Origin: Candidatus Parcubacteria bacterium
GTDB taxonomy: Bacteria; Patescibacteriota; Minisyncoccia; Phycocordibacterales; UBA6065
Reading direction: 5' to 3'
DNA length: 64,000 nucleotides
NCBI GenBank assembly: GCA_039796155.1
Contig: JBDKKJ010000002.1
Location: 31,365-95,364, forward strand
Below, one piece after another: positions 27,583-33,417 of this stretch. The translations under genes were made by a program, and so were the position numbers. The first letter of the stretch is position 1; each line of letters begins with the position of its first letter. The notes beneath the pieces were generated by a model. It was not told where the DNA came from, searched no databases, and was given only the letters and a program-made list of their open reading frames with translations.

Positions 27583-27655
27583 CCGCCCATAGCTCAGTCG
27601 GTAGAGCAGCTCCCTTTTAAGGAGAAGGTCGTTGGTTCGATTCCAACTGGGCGGA
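27583..27655 (+). tRNA. tRNA-Lys (anticodon TTT)
   Basis: Manual cloverleaf: acceptor ccgccca/tgggcgg, D-arm tagctcagtcggtagagc, anticodon loop cTTTTaa, T-arm gttggttcgattccaac; CCA not encoded. Confidence 0.85.
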
Positions 27656-27739
27656 CACTCATGCGATAGGTTCGGAGTCCGAGAGGGTCTATGCAACTTT
27701 TTGTAGTTTCTTTATTCGCTAATCTGATATTATTTTTGT

Positions 27740-29179
27740 ATGGACGAAAGCAACAAGGAAAAATTAGCAGTCTTACTCAACACTGAAGAGTGGCAAGTTT
27801 TCGAGTGTAAGGGTGCGGCAATAAAGCCTGCAAAGCTCATGGAGACCGTTATTGCTTTTGCTAATACCAACGGCGGCACAATTGTCATCGGTCTAGAAGA
27901 TCCCAAGAAAGCAACAGGTGAAAAAAGATTATTAGGAATAAGTAAATATGCCGACAATGTATCGAGCTTTTTGGCTCTTCTTGCAAAAGATATAGAGCCA
28001 CCACTTATAGATTTTTCTCACGAAGAATTTGAGATAACAAATGTAGAGGGTAAGGCAGACAAGCTTATTCTCTTTAGGATAGATAAAAGCGATGATGTGC
28101 ATTCGCTAAAGAATGGAGATACCTATGTAAGAAAGGGTAATCAGAATCAGAAAATCGGCGCTTCTGAAATAATTCGGCTAAAGTACGAAAAGGGCTCGAT
28201 CAAGTTCGAATCTGAGATGTCTAATTTGGATCAATTTGATGATGTTGATACTGATTTACTAAAAAAGTTTAAAGATGATACCGACGGTAAAGGTAGTGAT
28301 TGGCAATTCTTTAAAGACAACGGCCTCGCTATAAAGAAGCGCAACAAGTTCTTTTTAACCAAAGGCGGAGGACTGCTCTTCGGAAAGAATCCATCTGTTC
28401 TTCTTGGTAGTAAATCGAGCATAAAAATATCAAGATTCTTTGGTACGAAACAATCATTCACCGGTACGCCGAATTTGGTTCATAAACCACTTACTCTCGA
28501 AGGTCCTCTTTTGCTACAAATAACTGCCGCTGTTGATTATTTCAGGCAAGTGGTTAGGACGTCTCCTCCAAAACTCAGTGGTTCAACATTCAAGCCAAGT
28601 CTGCTTATTCCTGAGTCGGCATTCCAAGAGGCCGTAACCAATGCCGTGATACATAGAAATTATTCTATACAGAATGATATTCAGGTTAGATTTTTTGATG
28701 ACCATATTGAGATCGAAAGCCCGGGAACATATCCTGGACACGTTACTCCTGCGAACATAAGGCGAGAACGATTCGCCCGTAATCCGATAATTCAGAGAAC
28801 TCTAAATCGGTTTGGTGATGCTCCGAACTTGGATATCGGAGAGGGAGTGGACCGTATGTTCAAGGTTATGAAGCAAAAGAACTTGTATGAGCCGCTTTAT
28901 CAGCCAGCAACTCTGTTTCCAAATTCCGTGATGGTGGTCTTGTTTAATCTTCAAAAAATGGAGGCTTGGGATACGGTAAGCAATTATCTCGATAAGAATT
29001 TAAAGATTACTAACGAGCAGTCGAGAAATATCACAGGTATCACTGATACAGTAAAGATGTCACGTCTTTTCAAACAGTGGGTTGAAAATGGTCTTTTAAA
29101 AAAGGCAGAAGGAAGATCCAAAAGGGATATGTATTATTACAAGGCGGGGCAGGAGCTTTCTGCGGTTCTATTTTCATAG
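27740..29179 (+). CDS. AlbA_2 (Schlafen-like) DNA-binding domain / HATPase_c_4-like putative regulator
   Basis: N-terminus …WQVFECKGAAIKPAKLMETVIAFANTNGGTIVIGLED… resembles the 'divergent AAA/AlbA_2' domain; C-terminal half resembles the ATPase-like domain that accompanies it. Confidence 0.45.
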   Translation: MDESNKEKLAVLLNTEEWQVFECKGAAIKPAKLMETVIAFANTNGGTIVIGLEDPKKATGEKRLLGISKYADNVSSFLALLAKDIEPPLIDFSHEEFEITNVEGKADKLILFRIDKSDDVHSLKNGDTYVRKGNQNQKIGASEIIRLKYEKGSIKFESEMSNLDQFDDVDTDLLKKFKDDTDGKGSDWQFFKDNGLAIKKRNKFFLTKGGGLLFGKNPSVLLGSKSSIKISRFFGTKQSFTGTPNLVHKPLTLEGPLLLQITAAVDYFRQVVRTSPPKLSGSTFKPSLLIPESAFQEAVTNAVIHRNYSIQNDIQVRFFDDHIEIESPGTYPGHVTPANIRRERFARNPIIQRTLNRFGDAPNLDIGEGVDRMFKVMKQKNLYEPLYQPATLFPNSVMVVLFNLQKMEAWDTVSNYLDKNLKITNEQSRNITGITDTVKMSRLFKQWVENGLLKKAEGRSKRDMYYYKAGQELSAVLFS

Positions 29180-29229
29180 GCCTTGATAATAAAACCTTAA
29201 TACCTATAAAGGCCTAAAAATAAGGCTAT

Positions 29230-30579
29230 TTAGGAATCTTCATTTTCACAGGCCTTTTCAGCTAATTTGATTTGTTTATTCGCGAGTAGGATTTTACTCC
29301 TCAAACATCCTAACAGTTCTCGTTTTTCCACCATCGTTCCTTCCCGTAAAACATATTTTGCATAATTTCGTATATCGATATCTTCGACTTTGATCACTTT
29401 AGTTTTCACGCCAAGCATCGCTGATTGAAACCTCTTGTTTCGTTCGATTTCCGTTTTGATTTTCTCTTTCATACCTATCTCATTGAGGTCGATTGTATCG
29501 GCCACAGACGTTAGTTGTTCTATAAGAGCCTCTTCCGATATATAGCCACCTTTGCACGCTTTATCATTGTACTTGGTGCAACCGTAGTAGACGTATCGAT
29601 GTATGTTGCCGTTCTTCTGTTTCTTGAACTTCTCGTCGGCCGTGATGCCTGAGCCGCAGAGCCCACAGCTCATGAGCTTGGTGAAGGCGAATTCCTTGCT
29701 CTCTACCCGTATGACATGCTGACTTATAGCTCCCTGTACCTTGTCGAAAAGATCCTTTGATATGAGCGGCTCATGCTTGCCTTGATACCAGTTACCGCTT
29801 CCTCGTGGATATTCGAATGTACCGTAATAGAAATGGTTGCGGAGGATCAGATATACATTGGAGAGGGTGAGGGGTTTGTCATATCGCGATTTGAAATGCA
29901 TGTCGTCTTTGAGCCATGAATAGATTTTACGGCCGCTATACCCCTCATATGCCACCTTATGGAATATCTGCTGGATTATTGCCCCTCTCTTCGGATCAAT
30001 CTTAATCTGGCAACATTCATCCTTGTTCTTTGAATTGATATAGCCTGTGGGCGCTACGCAGGGCCAGAGGCCCATCTCGACTCTGGCTCGGAGGCCTCTC
30101 TTCACATTGATGCGACGGTTATCATTTTCAAGTTTTGCTTGTGAGCCGAGAATCATGAGGAGGAACTTTTCATTCGGGTTATTAGTGAATCTCTGCCCAT
30201 ACGTTCTGATTTCTATGAGCTTACCCGCATCCATGAGATCGACGATTCGACCAAGGTCGCCTGCGTTTCTCGATATACGATCCGGTGCCCATGTGAGTAT
30301 TCCGTTGAACTTTCCCGTTTTTATTTCCTCCACGATCTCATTGAATACCGGCCTCTGCCCAGTTTCCTTGGCTGAATGTGACTCCTTTTTTATCTCCGTT
30401 ATGTCGAGCTTCTCGCTATCAGCAAGGCGAAGCATCTCCTTGATCTGCGAGTCGATGGAAAGTACCTGCTGTTCCTCTGATTCCGTCGATTTCCTCGCGT
30501 ACAGGCAGTATTTCATCTTTATAGGAACTACTATTTTGGCCGGGGTCCCTAAAGGCGCTTGTATCGTATTGTTGTTCAT
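29230..30579 (-). CDS. large serine recombinase (resolvase/integrase family)
   Basis: N-terminal catalytic domain (YARKSTESEEQQ…SIDSQ…WAPDRISRN), recombinase domain, C-terminal Cys-rich zinc ribbon and coiled-coil; 449 aa (true start may be the internal ATG at ~30516). Confidence 0.8.
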   Translation of the reverse strand: MNNNTIQAPLGTPAKIVVPIKMKYCLYARKSTESEEQQVLSIDSQIKEMLRLADSEKLDITEIKKESHSAKETGQRPVFNEIVEEIKTGKFNGILTWAPDRISRNAGDLGRIVDLMDAGKLIEIRTYGQRFTNNPNEKFLLMILGSQAKLENDNRRINVKRGLRARVEMGLWPCVAPTGYINSKNKDECCQIKIDPKRGAIIQQIFHKVAYEGYSGRKIYSWLKDDMHFKSRYDKPLTLSNVYLILRNHFYYGTFEYPRGSGNWYQGKHEPLISKDLFDKVQGAISQHVIRVESKEFAFTKLMSCGLCGSGITADEKFKKQKNGNIHRYVYYGCTKYNDKACKGGYISEEALIEQLTSVADTIDLNEIGMKEKIKTEIERNKRFQSAMLGVKTKVIKVEDIDIRNYAKYVLREGTMVEKRELLGCLRSKILLANKQIKLAEKACENEDS

Positions 30580-30668: not shown

Positions 30669-30697
30669 CTTGACAAGTAGCTCTACAATGTATATAA
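30669..30697 (+). promoter_or_regulatory. consensus sigma70-type promoter upstream of the DGR target gene
   Basis: TTGACA (30669-30674), 17-nt spacer, TATAAT (30692-30697). Confidence 0.45.
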
Positions 30698-30729
30698 TAT
30701 AATAGTAAGTTCTTTGATATTACTTGCAT

Positions 30730-30780
30730 GTAGTCATAGCCAAAAGGCCTTATTTCATGAGGCTTCCTGGCTATGACTAC
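30730..30780. repeat. 12-bp perfect inverted repeat in the 5' leader of the DGR target gene
   Basis: gtagtcatagcc (30730-30741) / ggctatgactac (30769-30780) with 27-nt spacer. Confidence 0.6.
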
Positions 30781-30854
30781 CACTACGGTGATCAAGCTCA
30801 ACCAATCGAGCATGCTTCTTAACGAAGCTCGCTCAAAACAGGGAAAGTAATACC

Positions 30855-31511
30855 ATGAATAACATATTCACAATGAGTCAGGGCGCCGGCCAAAAACTTG
30901 AATTCGCGTTCGAACGCAACGACGGAAACACGTCGGACTTGGACTGGCTGTCGACGGGTGAAAACCTCAAGTCGGTCATCCTGCTCGCGCGAGGCGAGGC
31001 GGAATTAACCGTTAAGGCCAAACCTGTCCCAACTCCTGAATCTAAGGTTGCGAGCGACACCATCATCCGTGTCGACCGCTCGGTCAAGCCAACCTATCCC
31101 GACTGGGTGAAGGAAGTCCTTCATCCTGATCTGGAAAAGTCCGGCCCGACCGAATATAGCATCGCCACAATCGACCAATGGCTCCACGAAGGCCAGAAGA
31201 ATGGCAAATGGACCACGGGCAACGTGATCTATGCAAACCTGAAGGACAACGATGAGGTAGCCCTCAAAACCTGTCTCGGACTGCGCGACCTTGAAGAAAT
31301 CCAAAAGAAAGGCATCGCCTTTTTCCGGAAATACTTCAAGGGCAAAGCAGTATTTGGATGGGCTGGTGCTGTGCGGAACCGTCGCGACGACCTGAGTGCC
31401 CCGTATCTCTGCGAGCGCGGTGACGAGGTTGTCCTCGGCTGGAGCTGGGCTGACGGCAGTTGGAGCGGCAACGTTCCAGCTCTCCGCCACGCAAGTAGTC
31501 CTCAAGCCTAA
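30855..31511 (+). CDS. DGR target protein with C-terminal variable region (C-type-lectin-like VR)
   Basis: 218 aa; last ~42 codons (VRNRRDDLSAPYLCERGDEVVLGWSWADGSWSGNVPALRHA) correspond to the VR matched by the downstream TR; markedly GC-rich relative to surroundings. Confidence 0.7.
   Translation: MNNIFTMSQGAGQKLEFAFERNDGNTSDLDWLSTGENLKSVILLARGEAELTVKAKPVPTPESKVASDTIIRVDRSVKPTYPDWVKEVLHPDLEKSGPTEYSIATIDQWLHEGQKNGKWTTGNVIYANLKDNDEVALKTCLGLRDLEEIQKKGIAFFRKYFKGKAVFGWAGAVRNRRDDLSAPYLCERGDEVVLGWSWADGSWSGNVPALRHASSPQA
31370..31494 (+). repeat. DGR variable region (VR)
   Basis: 125-bp near-repeat of 31892-32016; 18 mismatches, every one at a position where the TR has adenine. Confidence 0.8.
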
Positions 31512-31544
31512 GACACTGAGATTTAGCTCTTTGTACTTAGTTCT

Positions 31545-31585
31545 TAGCCCGGCGTCGCGCAAGCGATGTCCGGGCTAATTTTTTA
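31545..31585 (+). terminator. GC-rich hairpin with GCAA tetraloop plus T-run immediately downstream of VR (terminator / DGR-associated hairpin)
   Basis: tagcccggcgtcgc-GCAA-gcgatgtccgggcta followed by ttttttatt. Confidence 0.55.
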
Positions 31586-31891
31586 TTAAAATAATGAACG
31601 AAGTGAATATATTTTCATTATCCCCTTTGGGGATTTTTTATATATCGATATATAATAATTTCGGTAGTAGGCGAATCTGCCGGCGGTTACGGCTTCTGGC
31701 GGCCGAATCCAGTATCCATGCGCTGAGAGCGAAGGAGATTAAGATTTCTTTCGGAGGGCGCATGCAGACACTTCAAAAAATGAAGCTACTTGGTGCAGAA
31801 TGCTATGGCATTATGATGCCGAATACGATTCAACCCTGAGATCGGCGTGGGCCTTCAAGGGGTGGTGGCATGGAAAGCATTGTGCACGTAG

Positions 31892-32016
31892 TGTGCGGAA
31901 CCGTAACGACAACCTGAATGCCCCGTATCTCTACGAGAACGGTGACAAGGTTGTCCTCAACTGGAACTGGACTGACAACAATTGGAACGGCAACAATCCA
32001 GCTCTCCGCCACGCAA
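31892..32016 (+). repeat. DGR template repeat (TR)
   Basis: Adenine-rich (AAC codons) copy of VR; non-coding template; ORF-track entries overlapping it (31800..32114, 31918..32355) are shadow ORFs. Confidence 0.8.
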
Positions 32017-32021
32017 CTCGC

Positions 32022-32384
32022 TCATTTCTCTCTGGCTTTGGCTGGGGAGTTTTGTTTGACAAGTTGCCCACTCCATCCTCCGAGGTTTCGGCCAATCTCA
32101 TCAAGTTTCACTGAGAGCTCAATATACTTCTTGTCGTCGAGAGACTTAACTTCCCAAAGAATCATGAGTAAGACATTAAGTGCGTCGAGCTTGCGTATGG
32201 CCAGACGAACGTATGGATATTTTTCCTGGGACGATAGGAAACTGGCGGCGGCGATAGCCTCGATCGCTTCAATAAACAAAGAATCTATGCGATATCCAAA
32301 TGAGTATCTGTCTTGTTTCGGTATATCATTACAAAATCCATGCCACAACAAATAAGTCTCTTTGATTTTCCGCATGACGGGCAA
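32022..32384 (-). CDS. avd: Avd-like accessory variability determinant (four-helix-bundle family), encoded antisense to TR-RT
   Basis: 120 aa; …DRYSFGYRIDSLFIEAIEAIAAAS… and C-terminal EIGRNLGGWSGQLVKQ resemble Bordetella phage bAvd (…EVGRILGSWIARVNRK) from memory; basic C-terminus. Confidence 0.5.
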   Translation of the reverse strand: MPVMRKIKETYLLWHGFCNDIPKQDRYSFGYRIDSLFIEAIEAIAAASFLSSQEKYPYVRLAIRKLDALNVLLMILWEVKSLDDKKYIELSVKLDEIGRNLGGWSGQLVKQNSPAKAREK

Positions 32385-33417
32385 GATTCCGTTGGGGGGG
32401 GGTTCGCCTCAGGGTTCCGGCCACATCAAATGTATTCATACCTACAAGGATATCATTTCTCTTGAAAATCTACTTGAAGCATGGAAAGAATTTAGAAATG
32501 GCAAGCGCAAAAGGAGAGATGTTTTAGAATTCGAGAGGGACCTCATGCAAAACATCATTTCGCTTCATGATGACTTGGTCGCAAAATCTTATAGACACGC
32601 TCATTACAAAGCATTTAAAATAAACGATCCGAAGCCGAGAGATATCCATAAAGCCACGGTGCGTGACAGGTTGTTACATCATGCAATCTATAGGAAACTC
32701 TATCCATTTTTTGATAAAACATTTATTACCGATTCATATTCATGCAGGATGGGTAAGGGGACGCATAAAGCTCTCGACAGATTTAGAAATTTTGCAGGGA
32801 AAGTATCAAAAAATCATACACGTACAGCTTGGGTTCTCAAATGTGATATACGCAAGTTTTTCGCATCAATAGATCAAAAAATCCTGGTATCGATTCTTGA
32901 AAATTATATATCTGACAAGGATATTATTAATCTTTTTTCGCACATCATCAGTAGTTTCCATTCCACAGTGAAAAACGTTGGCCTTCCTCTTGGAAATCTT
33001 ACATCGCAGCTCCTAGTGAATATATACATGAACAGGTTCGATCGGTTCATGAAACACAAATTAAAAACAAAATATTATATCCGTTACGCTGATGATTTTG
33101 TTATCTTGTCTTGCGACAGGATGTATCTCAAAGGATTGATTTCGCTCATCTCGAATTTTTTGAAAGATAGCTTAAAATTGAGGTTACATCCTGATAAAGT
33201 GTTCATAAAGACGTCTGCTTCCGGTGTTGATTTTCTAGGGTGGGTACATTTTTCCAATCATCGAATATTAAGAACAAGTGCAAGGAAAAGAATGATGAGG
33301 AATATCAGGAAGAACTGTGGAAAATCTGAGTCCGTGCAGTCATATCTTGGACTCATACAACACGGCAATTCCTATAAACTTACAAAGGAAATAAGCAGCT
33401 TGACTGTCTTTTTATAG
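32362..33417 (+). CDS. DGR-type reverse transcriptase
   Basis: RT motifs including YADD (YIRYADDFVILS) and the DGR-diagnostic 'LPLGNLTSQLLVNIYMN' (SQ in place of group-II-intron QGxxxSP); 351 aa; directly downstream of TR. Confidence 0.85.
   Translation: MIFRMTGKIPLGGGSPQGSGHIKCIHTYKDIISLENLLEAWKEFRNGKRKRRDVLEFERDLMQNIISLHDDLVAKSYRHAHYKAFKINDPKPRDIHKATVRDRLLHHAIYRKLYPFFDKTFITDSYSCRMGKGTHKALDRFRNFAGKVSKNHTRTAWVLKCDIRKFFASIDQKILVSILENYISDKDIINLFSHIISSFHSTVKNVGLPLGNLTSQLLVNIYMNRFDRFMKHKLKTKYYIRYADDFVILSCDRMYLKGLISLISNFLKDSLKLRLHPDKVFIKTSASGVDFLGWVHFSNHRILRTSARKRMMRNIRKNCGKSESVQSYLGLIQHGNSYKLTKEISSLTVFL

Follow-up and report, generated by a model that had tools for sequence, protein, structure and literature searches.

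The DGRs of the Patescibacteria (CPR) were reportedly first surveyed by Paul et al. in 2017. In 90% of them the gene order corresponds to the B3 architecture, TR-(avd)-RT (Wu et al. 2018, PMC5758913), and they form cellular clade 2, with targets without recognisable domains (Roux et al. 2021, PMC8144416). For the DGR of the Bordetella phage BPP-1 (mtd-avd-TR-brt), the structures of the bRT-Avd/RNA complex (PDB 8ub7-8ube) contain a template:primer duplex and a cPRT-stop duplex, and in the same work Handa et al. took the spacer elements of CPR DGRs to be located downstream of TR (bioRxiv 10.1101/2023.10.23.563531).

The locus analysed here was found in a 64-kb stretch of DNA from a Candidatus Parcubacteria bacterium, referred to as the window, and its order is target/VR, TR, avd on the opposite strand and RT, which is the B3 layout in a CPR genome. 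Gene order, upstream position of the target, cellular location, Patescibacterial host, a small domainless target with a C-terminal VR and an AAC-rich TR are all common to this locus and to the CPR DGRs of Wu et al. and Roux et al.; there is no essential difference between them, and the locus is thus a member of that class. The reading that we favour, with a probability of about 0.93, is that of a complete, recently active DGR of a Patescibacteria (CPR) lineage with the B3 layout. The genes and repeats of the locus are as follows:

30670-30698, plus strand: target-gene promoter (TTGACA, 17 nt, TATAAT; 12/12 consensus match)
30699-30854, plus strand: target 5' UTR, comprising a long inverted repeat at 30730-30780 and, further on, another hairpin at about 30808-30836
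30855-31511, plus strand: DGR target gene, an ORF of 218 aa with VR at its C-terminal end
31370-31494, plus strand: VR, 125 bp, from repeat search and pairwise alignment
31475-31494, plus strand: IMH-like VR 3' end, TCCAGCTCTCCGCCACGCAA, identical in TR and past the last mutated adenine
31546-31640, plus strand: two terminator-like hairpins, at 31546-31580 and at 31620-31634, with a T-run after each of them
31892-32016, plus strand: TR, non-coding, 125 bp, at an offset of 522 from VR
32022-32384, minus strand: avd, 120 aa from TTG 32384 or 117 aa from ATG 32375
32362-33417, plus strand: DGR RT, an ORF from TTG 32362, with ATG 32374 and TTG 32392 as other candidate starts
32394-32402, plus strand: poly-G tract (G9) at the 5' end of the RT ORF

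When VR and TR were aligned, 18 mismatches were detected in 125 bp and the downstream copy had A at all 18 of them, in agreement with the preliminary description of two near-identical repeats differing only at TR adenines; the probability of such a distribution by chance is 7.4e-12 (hypergeometric). TR contains 37 adenines, and VR is mutated at 18 of these. In the frame of the 218-aa ORF, the mismatches affect codon positions 1 or 2 in every case (18/18) and the altered VR codons are all non-synonymous (13/13); 35 of the 37 TR adenines lie at VR codon positions 1-2, nine AAC codons are present in the VR frame and a single codon (AAG at 31425) could be mutated to a stop. Seven VR codons had been proposed to derive from AAC, and this is so for CGC, GAC, GGC and AGC, whereas AGT derives from AAT, TGC from TAC and GCT from ACT; the W/G-rich segment VLGWSWADGSWSGN is present in the target ORF as described. 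The 11 bp upstream of the repeats (31359-31369 vs. 31881-31891) show weak homology with 5 mismatches, 3 of them not at A, so the boundaries assigned earlier to the repeats are sensible. No further VR-like copy was found in the 64-kb window.

DGR mutagenesis is usually described as roughly random A>N. Among the substitutions from TR to VR, A>G strongly predominates (15 of 18, the others being 2 A>C and 1 A>T), owing perhaps to selection or to another spectrum of misincorporation. The IMH-like end is a GC-rich, unmutated stretch of 20 bp common to VR and TR, with divergence starting directly after it, and mutation of its adenines is almost absent across 34 related loci.

Comparison of the window with the near-identical strain L001 (from JGI 3300079876) revealed a cassette 98-99% identical, with 40 differences in 1.9 kb. 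The two VRs show 20 differences in 125 bp, all of them (20/20) at TR-adenine positions, and the two TRs differ at a single position, 32000 (A/G), at which the VR of L001 also carries G. As the VRs differ at TR adenines only and a TR base has been copied into the VR of L001, the element has been active since the divergence of both strains, and mutagenic homing after this divergence is required. An exact-match metagenome scan with a 29-mer downstream of VR gave no match, so population-level diversity of VR rests on this single strain. Among 71 genome loci with target homologues, 34 have the cassette, with identical order and orientation, and in these VR/TR mismatches fall at TR adenines in 595 of 625 cases; homologous cassettes came from MAGs named Taylorbacteria, Nomurabacteria, Paceibacterota and Moraniibacteriota, among others. 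The interpretation of the locus as a DGR is therefore supported by the adenine-only VR/TR differences, the DGR-type RT, the Avd homologue and the VR differences with L001.

In BPP-1, a hairpin downstream of VR is needed for efficient homing. A covarying palindrome about 25 nt 3' of VR reaches 5-6 bp in about half of the relatives (per-sequence search), whereas that of the window has 3 bp only; RNAalifold detected no consensus structure in the 150 nt downstream of VR. The short palindrome, the slippage-prone G9 tract at the start of the RT ORF and the split RT matches of some relatives (L003, L062 and L028) would fit a decayed or inactive remnant, in which the VR/TR pattern is a fossil and the target is no longer diversified. 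However, all the ORFs are intact and the catalytic motifs are kept, the elements of the TR RNA agree with the family consensus, and the VR of L001 differs at 20 TR-adenine positions and has received the TR base change, making a remnant very unlikely. Regarding the poly-G tract, 11 of the 14 related loci checked have it at the same place, with 8-14 nt. It might give rise to a frameshift or phase switch; where the tblastn match of the relatives spans it, the tract is in frame and encodes a Gly-rich linker.

The RT ORF encodes LGNLTSQ as motif 4 and YADD as motif 5, aligned to IGSLTSQ and YMDD of bRT, and its candidate starts (32362-32392) lie 345-375 nt from the end of TR, which is upstream. Its best solved relative is the bRT of BPP-1 (8ub7, E 9e-44, 153 bits), with homology along the whole length, whereas group II and retron RTs match with 74 bits at most (7uim and 5hhl, 74 bits); it also matched phrog_1423 (E 3e-106). 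This bears out the DGR-type assignment made earlier from its motifs. Generic models were also matched, namely RVT_1 and TIGR04416 (group II RT, 146 bits vs. a cut-off of 300), as would be expected if the enzyme were a group II intron, retron or defence RT placed next to an unrelated duplication. Nevertheless, the score of the BPP-1 enzyme doubles that of any group II or retron RT. Group II intron RTs, the nearest non-DGR relatives of this protein, have an SP-type motif 4 in contrast to the SQ-type found here, where neither maturase nor endonuclease domains were detected in the RT and no intron or retron RNA was found at the locus in an Rfam search. Adenine-only mismatches have a chance of 7e-12, and such an origin is extremely improbable.

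The small ORF between TR and RT was previously proposed as Avd-like with four helices; its identity was corroborated by profile searches, and its strand is minus, convergent with TR and divergent from RT. The protein matched phrog_3206, "Avd protein of DGR" (E 4e-13), and, below the curated cut-offs, NF033474 (E 1.2e-14, 54.5 bits vs. 80) and PF22296 (E 5e-8, 33.7 bits vs. 40). Homologues amounted to 422, and nearly all of the 120 listed carry a precomputed PF22296 match. The predicted model is a four-helix bundle, encoded inside a DGR cassette; the Avd in the PDB was not found by sequence with a profile of 18 Avd sequences. Judged by these matches, the 120-aa ORF is Avd, as a divergent member of the family rather than a non-member.

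The target protein has three helices in its N-terminal part and, at the C-terminus, an alpha/beta domain closing with VR. Its homologues (230, all unnamed and all from Patescibacteria) mostly begin at the Met of MSQGAG (30873) and show variability confined to VR, and about half of the genomic copies of the family have no adjacent DGR. The protein looks cytoplasmic, with no signal peptide, TM segment or recognisable domain, and no sequence match was found in Pfam, NCBIfam, PHROG or PDB. In a fold search with the target, for which the AF2 model has a pLDDT of 87.5, CLec-fold proteins prevailed in the match list, among them TvpA, Mtd, FGE/EgtB, invasin/intimin and the Bd2740 tip domain. As in the CLec variable proteins of other DGRs (Mtd 1yu0, Treponema TvpA 2y3c and FGE-type domains), VR occupies the extreme C-terminus of an alpha/beta domain. 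These data weakly suggest a C-type-lectin fold for the VR domain. In the 5' UTR the inverted repeat has arms of 24 nt; its hairpins recur in the relatives with different sequences, and promoter-like boxes are also present there at the position of the target promoter. Of the two terminator-like hairpins following the gene, the second was found by a terminator scan and the first was read from the sequence.

The DGR had been described as embedded in a housekeeping-dense region; the genes immediately next to it, however, are not housekeeping ones but tRNA-Lys, a Schlafen/AlbA_2-HATPase protein and a large serine recombinase (phrog_95 integrase, E 2e-60); PolA, a pol III subunit, Bax1-I, a SpoU-like gene and Fpg are found in the flanks. 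A cassette located directly past tRNA-Lys, beside such a recombinase and a Schlafen/AlbA_2 protein, with GC contents of 0.55 in the target and 0.37 in RT, both off the window mean (0.43), could belong to a phage or other mobile element, in which case the DGR would diversify a receptor-binding or host-interaction protein of the integrated element and not a cellular function. The same recombinase (91% aa) does accompany the cassette in strain L001 and in locus L002, but most of the 34 related cassettes lack it. In addition, no phage structural, packaging or lysis genes were detected within 10 kb, no att-like direct repeats bounding an island were found between tRNA-Lys and the Bax1-I gene, the target has no match in PHROG and nearly all CPR DGRs are reported to be cellular (PMC8144416). 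Therefore, a mobile-element origin is considered unlikely and a cellular DGR is preferred.

The region between the target gene and avd contains, in addition to TR, a series of elements conserved among the relatives, listed below:

31651-31656, plus strand: predicted -10 box of the TR RNA, TATAAT
31663-31891, plus strand: 5' leader of the TR RNA, 229 nt, structured, from comparative RNA analysis
31670-31704, plus strand: leader helix P1, from RNA folding
31718-31763, plus strand: leader helix P2, from RNA folding
31778-31786, plus strand: primer-like strand of the leader, pairing with 32020-32027
31787-31794, plus strand: invariant leader segment UACUUGGU
31793-31804 with 31876-31887, plus strand: long-range helix P3, enclosing hairpins 31807-31820 and 31833-31863
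32017-32027, plus strand: linker 3' of TR, of which 32020-32027 pair with the leader and which holds the avd stop codon on the other strand
32028-32057, plus strand: terminal hairpin (32028-32049, 9 bp, tetraloop) and U-tract, from a terminator scan

In 28 loci, a TGATAnAnT-type box is conserved 6-8 nt before a conserved GGTAGTAGG start, and we infer from sequence that TR is its own transcription unit of about 395 nt (about 31663-32057). The RNA would start from the extended -10 promoter and end at the hairpin and U-tract within the last avd codons. Conservation of the leader structure was evident: RNAalifold of 24 loci predicted 57 pairs, 35 of them with compensatory double changes, and that of the full-length RNA (n=30) gave 73 pairs, 45 of them compensatory. 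P3 comprises 12 pairs, with compensatory changes in 9, and the window copy of the leader folds at -82.3 kcal/mol (z -2.5). With nhmmer the leader was found in 111 of the 120 metagenome matches listed and in all four loci retrieved by way of Avd, and it abuts TR in all the loci (34 + 4 + 111), accompanying RT/Avd across at least three unrelated target families. No Rfam family matched the leader or the TR RNA.

The helix between leader and linker was paired in 92.8% of cells, compared to 44-55% when one strand was slid, and none of 500 shuffles reached its score; with 103 sequences the values were 93.2% and 41-60%, respectively, again with 0/500 shuffles. Three pairs are changed on both sides, although the helix is short (9 pairs), 6 of the 9 pairs show little variation and pairing fails in about 7% of cells. 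The terminal hairpin, which covaries and is present in 103 of 107 RNAs, is the sole conserved structure within 230 nt downstream of TR, no consensus structure being detected in the remainder of this stretch (antisense to avd); it is predicted to terminate the TR RNA and is also a candidate for the stem-loop bound by Avd. Linker and hairpin overlap the last ~12 codons of avd, in such a way that the end of the protein, KQNSP...EK*, is the antisense of GGAGAGTTTTGTTT...TCA. A pairing of leader CCAGUAUCC with TR GGAACUGG proposed by RNAalifold was not retained, as both sides are invariant and it is neither supported nor opposed.

BPP-1 shares with this locus the adenine-specific VR/TR differences, the presence of Avd, the GC-rich invariant VR 3' end, a stem-loop directly 3' of the template region, and a single strand that is paired over 9-10 bp to the 3' edge of the template and, a few nt on, over 11-12 bp to the segment just upstream of TR. 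The differences concern mainly where these elements are placed. In BPP-1 avd is co-oriented and upstream of TR, whereas here it is inverted and occupies the place of the BPP-1 spacer; that spacer, a structured stretch of 140 nt between TR and brt (Rfam RT-10 motif) with primer, stop, thumb-ring and RT-binding elements, is replaced by one conserved hairpin; and the strand with double pairing, located in the spacer 3' of TR in BPP-1, is found 5' of TR, in the leader. In addition, BPP-1 initiates inside TR and here the predicted initiation is 3 nt outside the VR/TR homology, and BPP-1 is a phage with a tail-fibre target whereas this locus has a cellular host and a target that is not a tail fibre. 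The two-duplex arrangement of the leader thus equals the BPP-1 topology, and by analogy both may be functionally equivalent. The 229-nt leader, the terminator inside avd and the pairing of the leader with both flanks of TR are not described in the CPR DGR papers (PMC5758913 and PMC8144416).

These comparisons led us to the proposal, to which we give even odds, that CPR DGRs use a permuted RNA, in which the elements of the BPP-1 spacer have been moved to the 229-nt leader 5' of TR. It is an equally balanced matter whether the primer strand, the strand of the stop duplex and the protein-binding helices all reside in this leader, taken jointly with a terminator inside avd. A rather doubtful alternative would place the leader outside the reverse-transcription RNP, as an independent small RNA or a regulator of the stability or transcription of the TR RNA, with the functions of the spacer exerted elsewhere, e.g. 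antisense to avd. It would agree with the putative spacer-like elements that Handa et al. put less than 100 nt downstream of TR in many DGRs, those of CPR included, and the possible pairing of leader and TR hints at other roles; furthermore, leader and priming are linked by comparison. On the other hand, the leader adjoins TR at all loci and moves with RT/Avd over the different target families, downstream of TR there is a single conserved hairpin followed by a U-tract, and both flanks of TR are paired to the leader in the arrangement known from BPP-1, with covariation in these pairings.

We infer from sequence where the RNA begins and ends, where priming takes place and how homing proceeds, as follows. 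By analogy with the BPP-1 mechanism, RT-Avd would bind the TR-containing RNA, copying into cDNA would occur with random incorporation opposite adenines, and this cDNA would replace VR as far as its GC-rich invariant 3' end; in the C-terminal domain of the target, as many as 19 codons could be recoded in this way, giving ~1e20 possible peptides. In the permuted RNA, leader strand 31778-31804 would take part in two helices separated by the invariant joiner UACUUG, one of 9 bp with the 8-9 nt that directly follow TR and the next of 12 bp with the segment that directly precedes it, TR looping out between them. Cis-priming from the leader is proposed because this is the same two-duplex arrangement as in BPP-1, with the shared strand 5' of TR; cDNA synthesis would begin ~3 nt beyond the boundary of the TR/VR homology and stop at P3.

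The locus is of value as a clean, intact and demonstrably active specimen of a class already abundant in CPR, with a compact target that is part of a family of >230 proteins. The RNA model is testable for the whole lineage of CPR DGRs, read until now by analogy with the BPP-1 spacer. Should the primer and stop strands come from the leader, the minimal RNA for reconstitution or engineering would be 31663-32057, and it could be tested directly whether the DGR priming core has been conserved through the rearrangement. If the permuted RNA is true, it would account for the viability of the B3 gene order and for its near-universal presence in CPR, and would reveal a large uncatalogued family of structured RNAs, with >110 examples, that accompanies the RT/Avd lineage across unrelated targets.

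A repeat search returned a single long repeat in the region, 31359-31494 against 31881-32016. Within its 125-bp core, the variable repeat (VR, 31370-31494) and the template repeat (TR, 31892-32016) differed at 18 positions, and the TR copy had A at every one of them (A to G in 15 cases, A to C in two and A to T in one). TR contains 37 adenines in 125 bases, and the probability that all 18 mismatches fall on A by chance is 7.4e-12, which upholds the earlier observation of two near-identical segments differing only at TR adenines. In the frame of the 218-aa target ORF, all 18 mismatches were at codon position 1 or 2 and the 13 altered VR codons were all non-synonymous. Similarly, 35 of the 37 TR adenines lie at codon positions 1-2 and, read in the VR frame, TR has nine AAC codons and a single codon, AAG, from which a stop can be reached by mutation. 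The VR codons previously listed as AAC-derived stand except for AGT, TGC and GCT, which correspond to AAT, TAC and ACT, respectively. No further VR-like copy was found in the 64-kb window.

At TR adenines the substituted base was predominantly G, in 15/18 cases here (p 2e-5 for a one-third expectation) and in 61% (361/595) in 34 related loci, where T made up 23% and C 16%; this strong skew comes either from selection favouring Gly, Asp, Ser and Arg codons or from a misincorporation bias in this lineage of reverse transcriptase (RT). In the 34 loci with paired VR and TR, the approximately 60 nt 3' of VR (31495-31545 in the window) do not code for protein and are partly conserved, and CTnnG-type motifs repeat there at about 10-nt intervals. 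About half of these loci have, some 22-28 nt after VR, a perfect palindrome of 5-6 bp whose sequence varies; in the window it is no more than GAG/CTC. This palindrome may be the counterpart of the target hairpin/cruciform of the Bordetella phage BPP-1 DGR.

The recent history of the repeats was apparent from L001, the locus of a near-identical strain on a JGI metagenome contig, which shares with the window the synteny of PolA, a pol III subunit, the Schlafen-like gene, the recombinase, the target and Avd. Window and L001 differed at 40 positions in 1.9 kb, 20 of them in the 125-bp VR and all of these 20 at TR-adenine positions. The TRs differed at one site, 32000 (A in the window, G in L001), and the VR of L001 has G at the matching site. 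Both the VR differences at TR adenines and the copied TR base are predicted by mutagenic homing after strain divergence, and the comparison contradicts the alternative of a fossil DGR without present activity. In the 34 related cassettes, 595 of 625 VR/TR mismatches were at TR adenines.

The RT ORF (32362-33417) matched RVT_1, and its best solved structure was 8ub7, the BPP-1 DGR RT (E 9e-44, 153 bits, residues 30-330), whereas group II intron and retron-type RT structures reached at most 74 bits. These scores exclude an RT of non-DGR type and confirm the DGR-type enzyme proposed from its YADD and LGNLTSQ motifs, which align with YMDD and IGSLTSQ of the BPP-1 RT; in PHROGs the match was phrog_1423 (E 3e-106). 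The 120-aa avd ORF matched NF033474 (DGR Avd, E 1.2e-14) and PF22296 (bAvd, E 5e-8), below the curated cut-offs of both, and 'Avd protein of DGR' in PHROGs (E 4e-13); of the 422 homologues found, 120 were listed, and nearly all of these carry PF22296. These profiles and the four-helix bundle of the AF2 model agree with the small Avd-like ORF described between TR and RT, with the correction that it lies on the minus strand. The target matched nothing in Pfam, NCBIfam, PHROGs or PDB sequences, and is one of at least 230 unnamed patescibacterial proteins that form a family well conserved outside VR, while inside it almost every TR-adenine codon is variable. Information transfer from TR to VR is adenine-restricted, RT and Avd are intact and the element was recently active. 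The preliminary description was correct in reading the locus as a DGR.

A poly-G tract (32394-32402) was detected at the 5' end of the RT ORF, at the avd-RT junction. Among loci L001-L068, a tract of 8-14 nt was found at the matching position in 11 of 14 checked and was missing in three, and it was in frame wherever tblastn matches cross it; possible roles are to encode a Gly-rich linker or to turn RT on and off as a slipped-strand switch. RT matches were split in two pieces in loci L003 and L062 and included duplicated fragments in L028, suggesting frameshifts, assembly errors or decaying copies. The GC content was 0.55 in the target, 0.52-0.53 in the leader plus TR, 0.44 in avd and 0.37 in RT, with a window mean of 0.43.

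The spacing from VR to TR was constant (320-407 nt, 34 loci), and the 229 nt directly 5' of TR (leader, 31663-31891) show strong conservation, do not code for protein and follow an extended -10-like box. RNAalifold predicted 57 pairs from 24 loci, 35 with compensatory double changes, and 73 pairs from 30 full-length RNAs, 45 of them compensatory; the window leader folds at -82.3 kcal/mol (z -2.5). It matched no family in Rfam 15; the RT-10 motif, as published, is the BPP-1 spacer (PMC5737381). The leader was present in all four loci retrieved through Avd alone, in which target proteins and VR classes differ, and in 111 of 120 listed metagenome stretches containing its 17-mer; the conservation of the 17-mer itself is subject to ascertainment bias, that of the remaining conserved blocks is not. 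In these metagenome loci the order was leader, TR, avd (minus), RT (plus) wherever the contig extends far enough, and only about ten had the target family of the window. Overall, more than 140 DGR loci of Patescibacteria (CPR), whose targets come from three or more unrelated families, contain the leader and, 3' of TR, the linker, hairpin and U-tract. The leader may serve in regulation instead of catalysis.

In L016, L032 and L033, three related loci, a hairpin-forming insertion of about 45 nt between leader helix P2 and the primer-like strand (alignment A5, columns 131-178) marks a tolerated expansion point. The invariant leader CCAGUAUCC (31709-31717) is complementary to GGAACUGG in the W-N-W codons of TR (31963-31970), and RNAalifold predicts that they pair once TR is included; both sides are invariant.

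The sole conserved structure 3' of TR was a covarying 9-bp hairpin (32028-32049) followed by TTTTGTTT, which scores as an intrinsic terminator and falls within the last avd codons. TR thus appears to be transcribed as a discrete RNA of about 395 nt, overlapping the convergent avd at its 3' end. The C-terminal tail of Avd, KQNSP...(G)EK* (32022-32057, minus strand, codons ~109-120), is encoded antisense to the hairpin arm and U-tract of the terminator and to the linker, and in some loci the avd stop comes earlier with the nucleotide sequence still kept; conservation of the tail is probably driven by RNA rather than protein.

AAAUGAAGM (31778-31786), a strand of the leader, forms a helix with the 8-9 nt immediately 3' of TR (32020-32027). 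In 30 sequences, 92.8% of cells were paired, compared to 44-55% with the partner slid, and three pairs changed on both sides; in 103 sequences the values were 93.2% and 41-60%, with independent switches including U-A to C-G, G-C to A-U, and A-U to C-G or U-A. The covariation score was reached by 0 of 500 shuffles in either set. An almost invariant 6-nt joiner, UACUUGGU, separates this helix from the 12-bp long-range helix P3, in which the shared leader strand pairs with 31876-31887, a segment ending 4 nt before TR. In the BPP-1 RNP, Sp47-56 of the spacer RNA and TR117-129 form the template:primer duplex, 2 nt on Sp59-70 and a segment just upstream of TR form the cPRT stop, and an Avd-binding stem-loop lies directly 3' of TR; for other DGRs that work covered no more than 40 nt on the 5' side and 100 nt on the 3' side of TR (bioRxiv 10.1101/2023.10.23.563531). 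The CPR RNA has a matching topology, one strand pairing with both TR flanks, but this strand is 5' of TR, whereas in BPP-1 it is 3'.

By analogy with BPP-1 biochemistry, RT-Avd would bind the TR RNA and synthesize cDNA with misincorporation opposite A, and the cDNA would replace VR as far as its invariant GC-rich 3' end. From covariation, the TR RNA would have the boundaries drawn here, with putative cis-priming from the leader at or beside 31786-31788; synthesis would start about 3 nt 3' of the homology boundary and terminate at P3.

The setting had been described as housekeeping-dense, which does not hold for the immediate neighbours, directly upstream of the DGR:
27583-27656, tRNA-Lys
27740-29179, Schlafen/AlbA_2 + HATPase_c_4 protein
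29230-30579, minus strand, large serine recombinase

That a serine integrase, a Schlafen-like gene and tRNA-Lys adjoin the cassette suggests a phage or island origin, against which phage structural genes are absent, a search for bounding direct repeats found none, and the recombinase accompanies only the cassettes of the closest relatives. Between the window and L001, the Schlafen-like protein is 28% identical, the recombinase 91% and the cassette DNA 98-99%, and 27583-30579 looks like a variable island adjoining the cassette. The target promoter (within 30670-30854) is a perfect sigma-70 sequence (12/12 consensus), and the 5' UTR, about 155 nt in length, contains two hairpins, a long one at 30730-30780 and another at ~30808-30836, both recurring in relatives with compensatory changes; this UTR may act in cis to regulate the target mRNA.

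With one genome scanned per species, target homologues were found at 71 loci, all in Patescibacteria MAGs, and a DGR adjoined 34 of them, always in the order target (plus), TR (plus), avd (minus), RT (plus). The other 37 (e.g. L008, L011, L012, L014, L017 and L021) lacked a TR-like repeat, Avd and RT within about 4 kb, and some MAGs have several target copies (e.g. CAZWUU01, with L018, L022 and L070); the DGR-less homologues may be diversified from a distance by a DGR located elsewhere in the genome, or may be paralogues that are not diversified. CPR DGRs form cellular clade 2, with targets lacking recognisable domains (Roux et al., PMC8144416). The window element therefore belongs to an already known class, of which it is a typical and unusually well-documented active member. 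As a DGR it adds little that is new; the parts worth following are its conserved leader RNA and the permuted topology of primer and stop.
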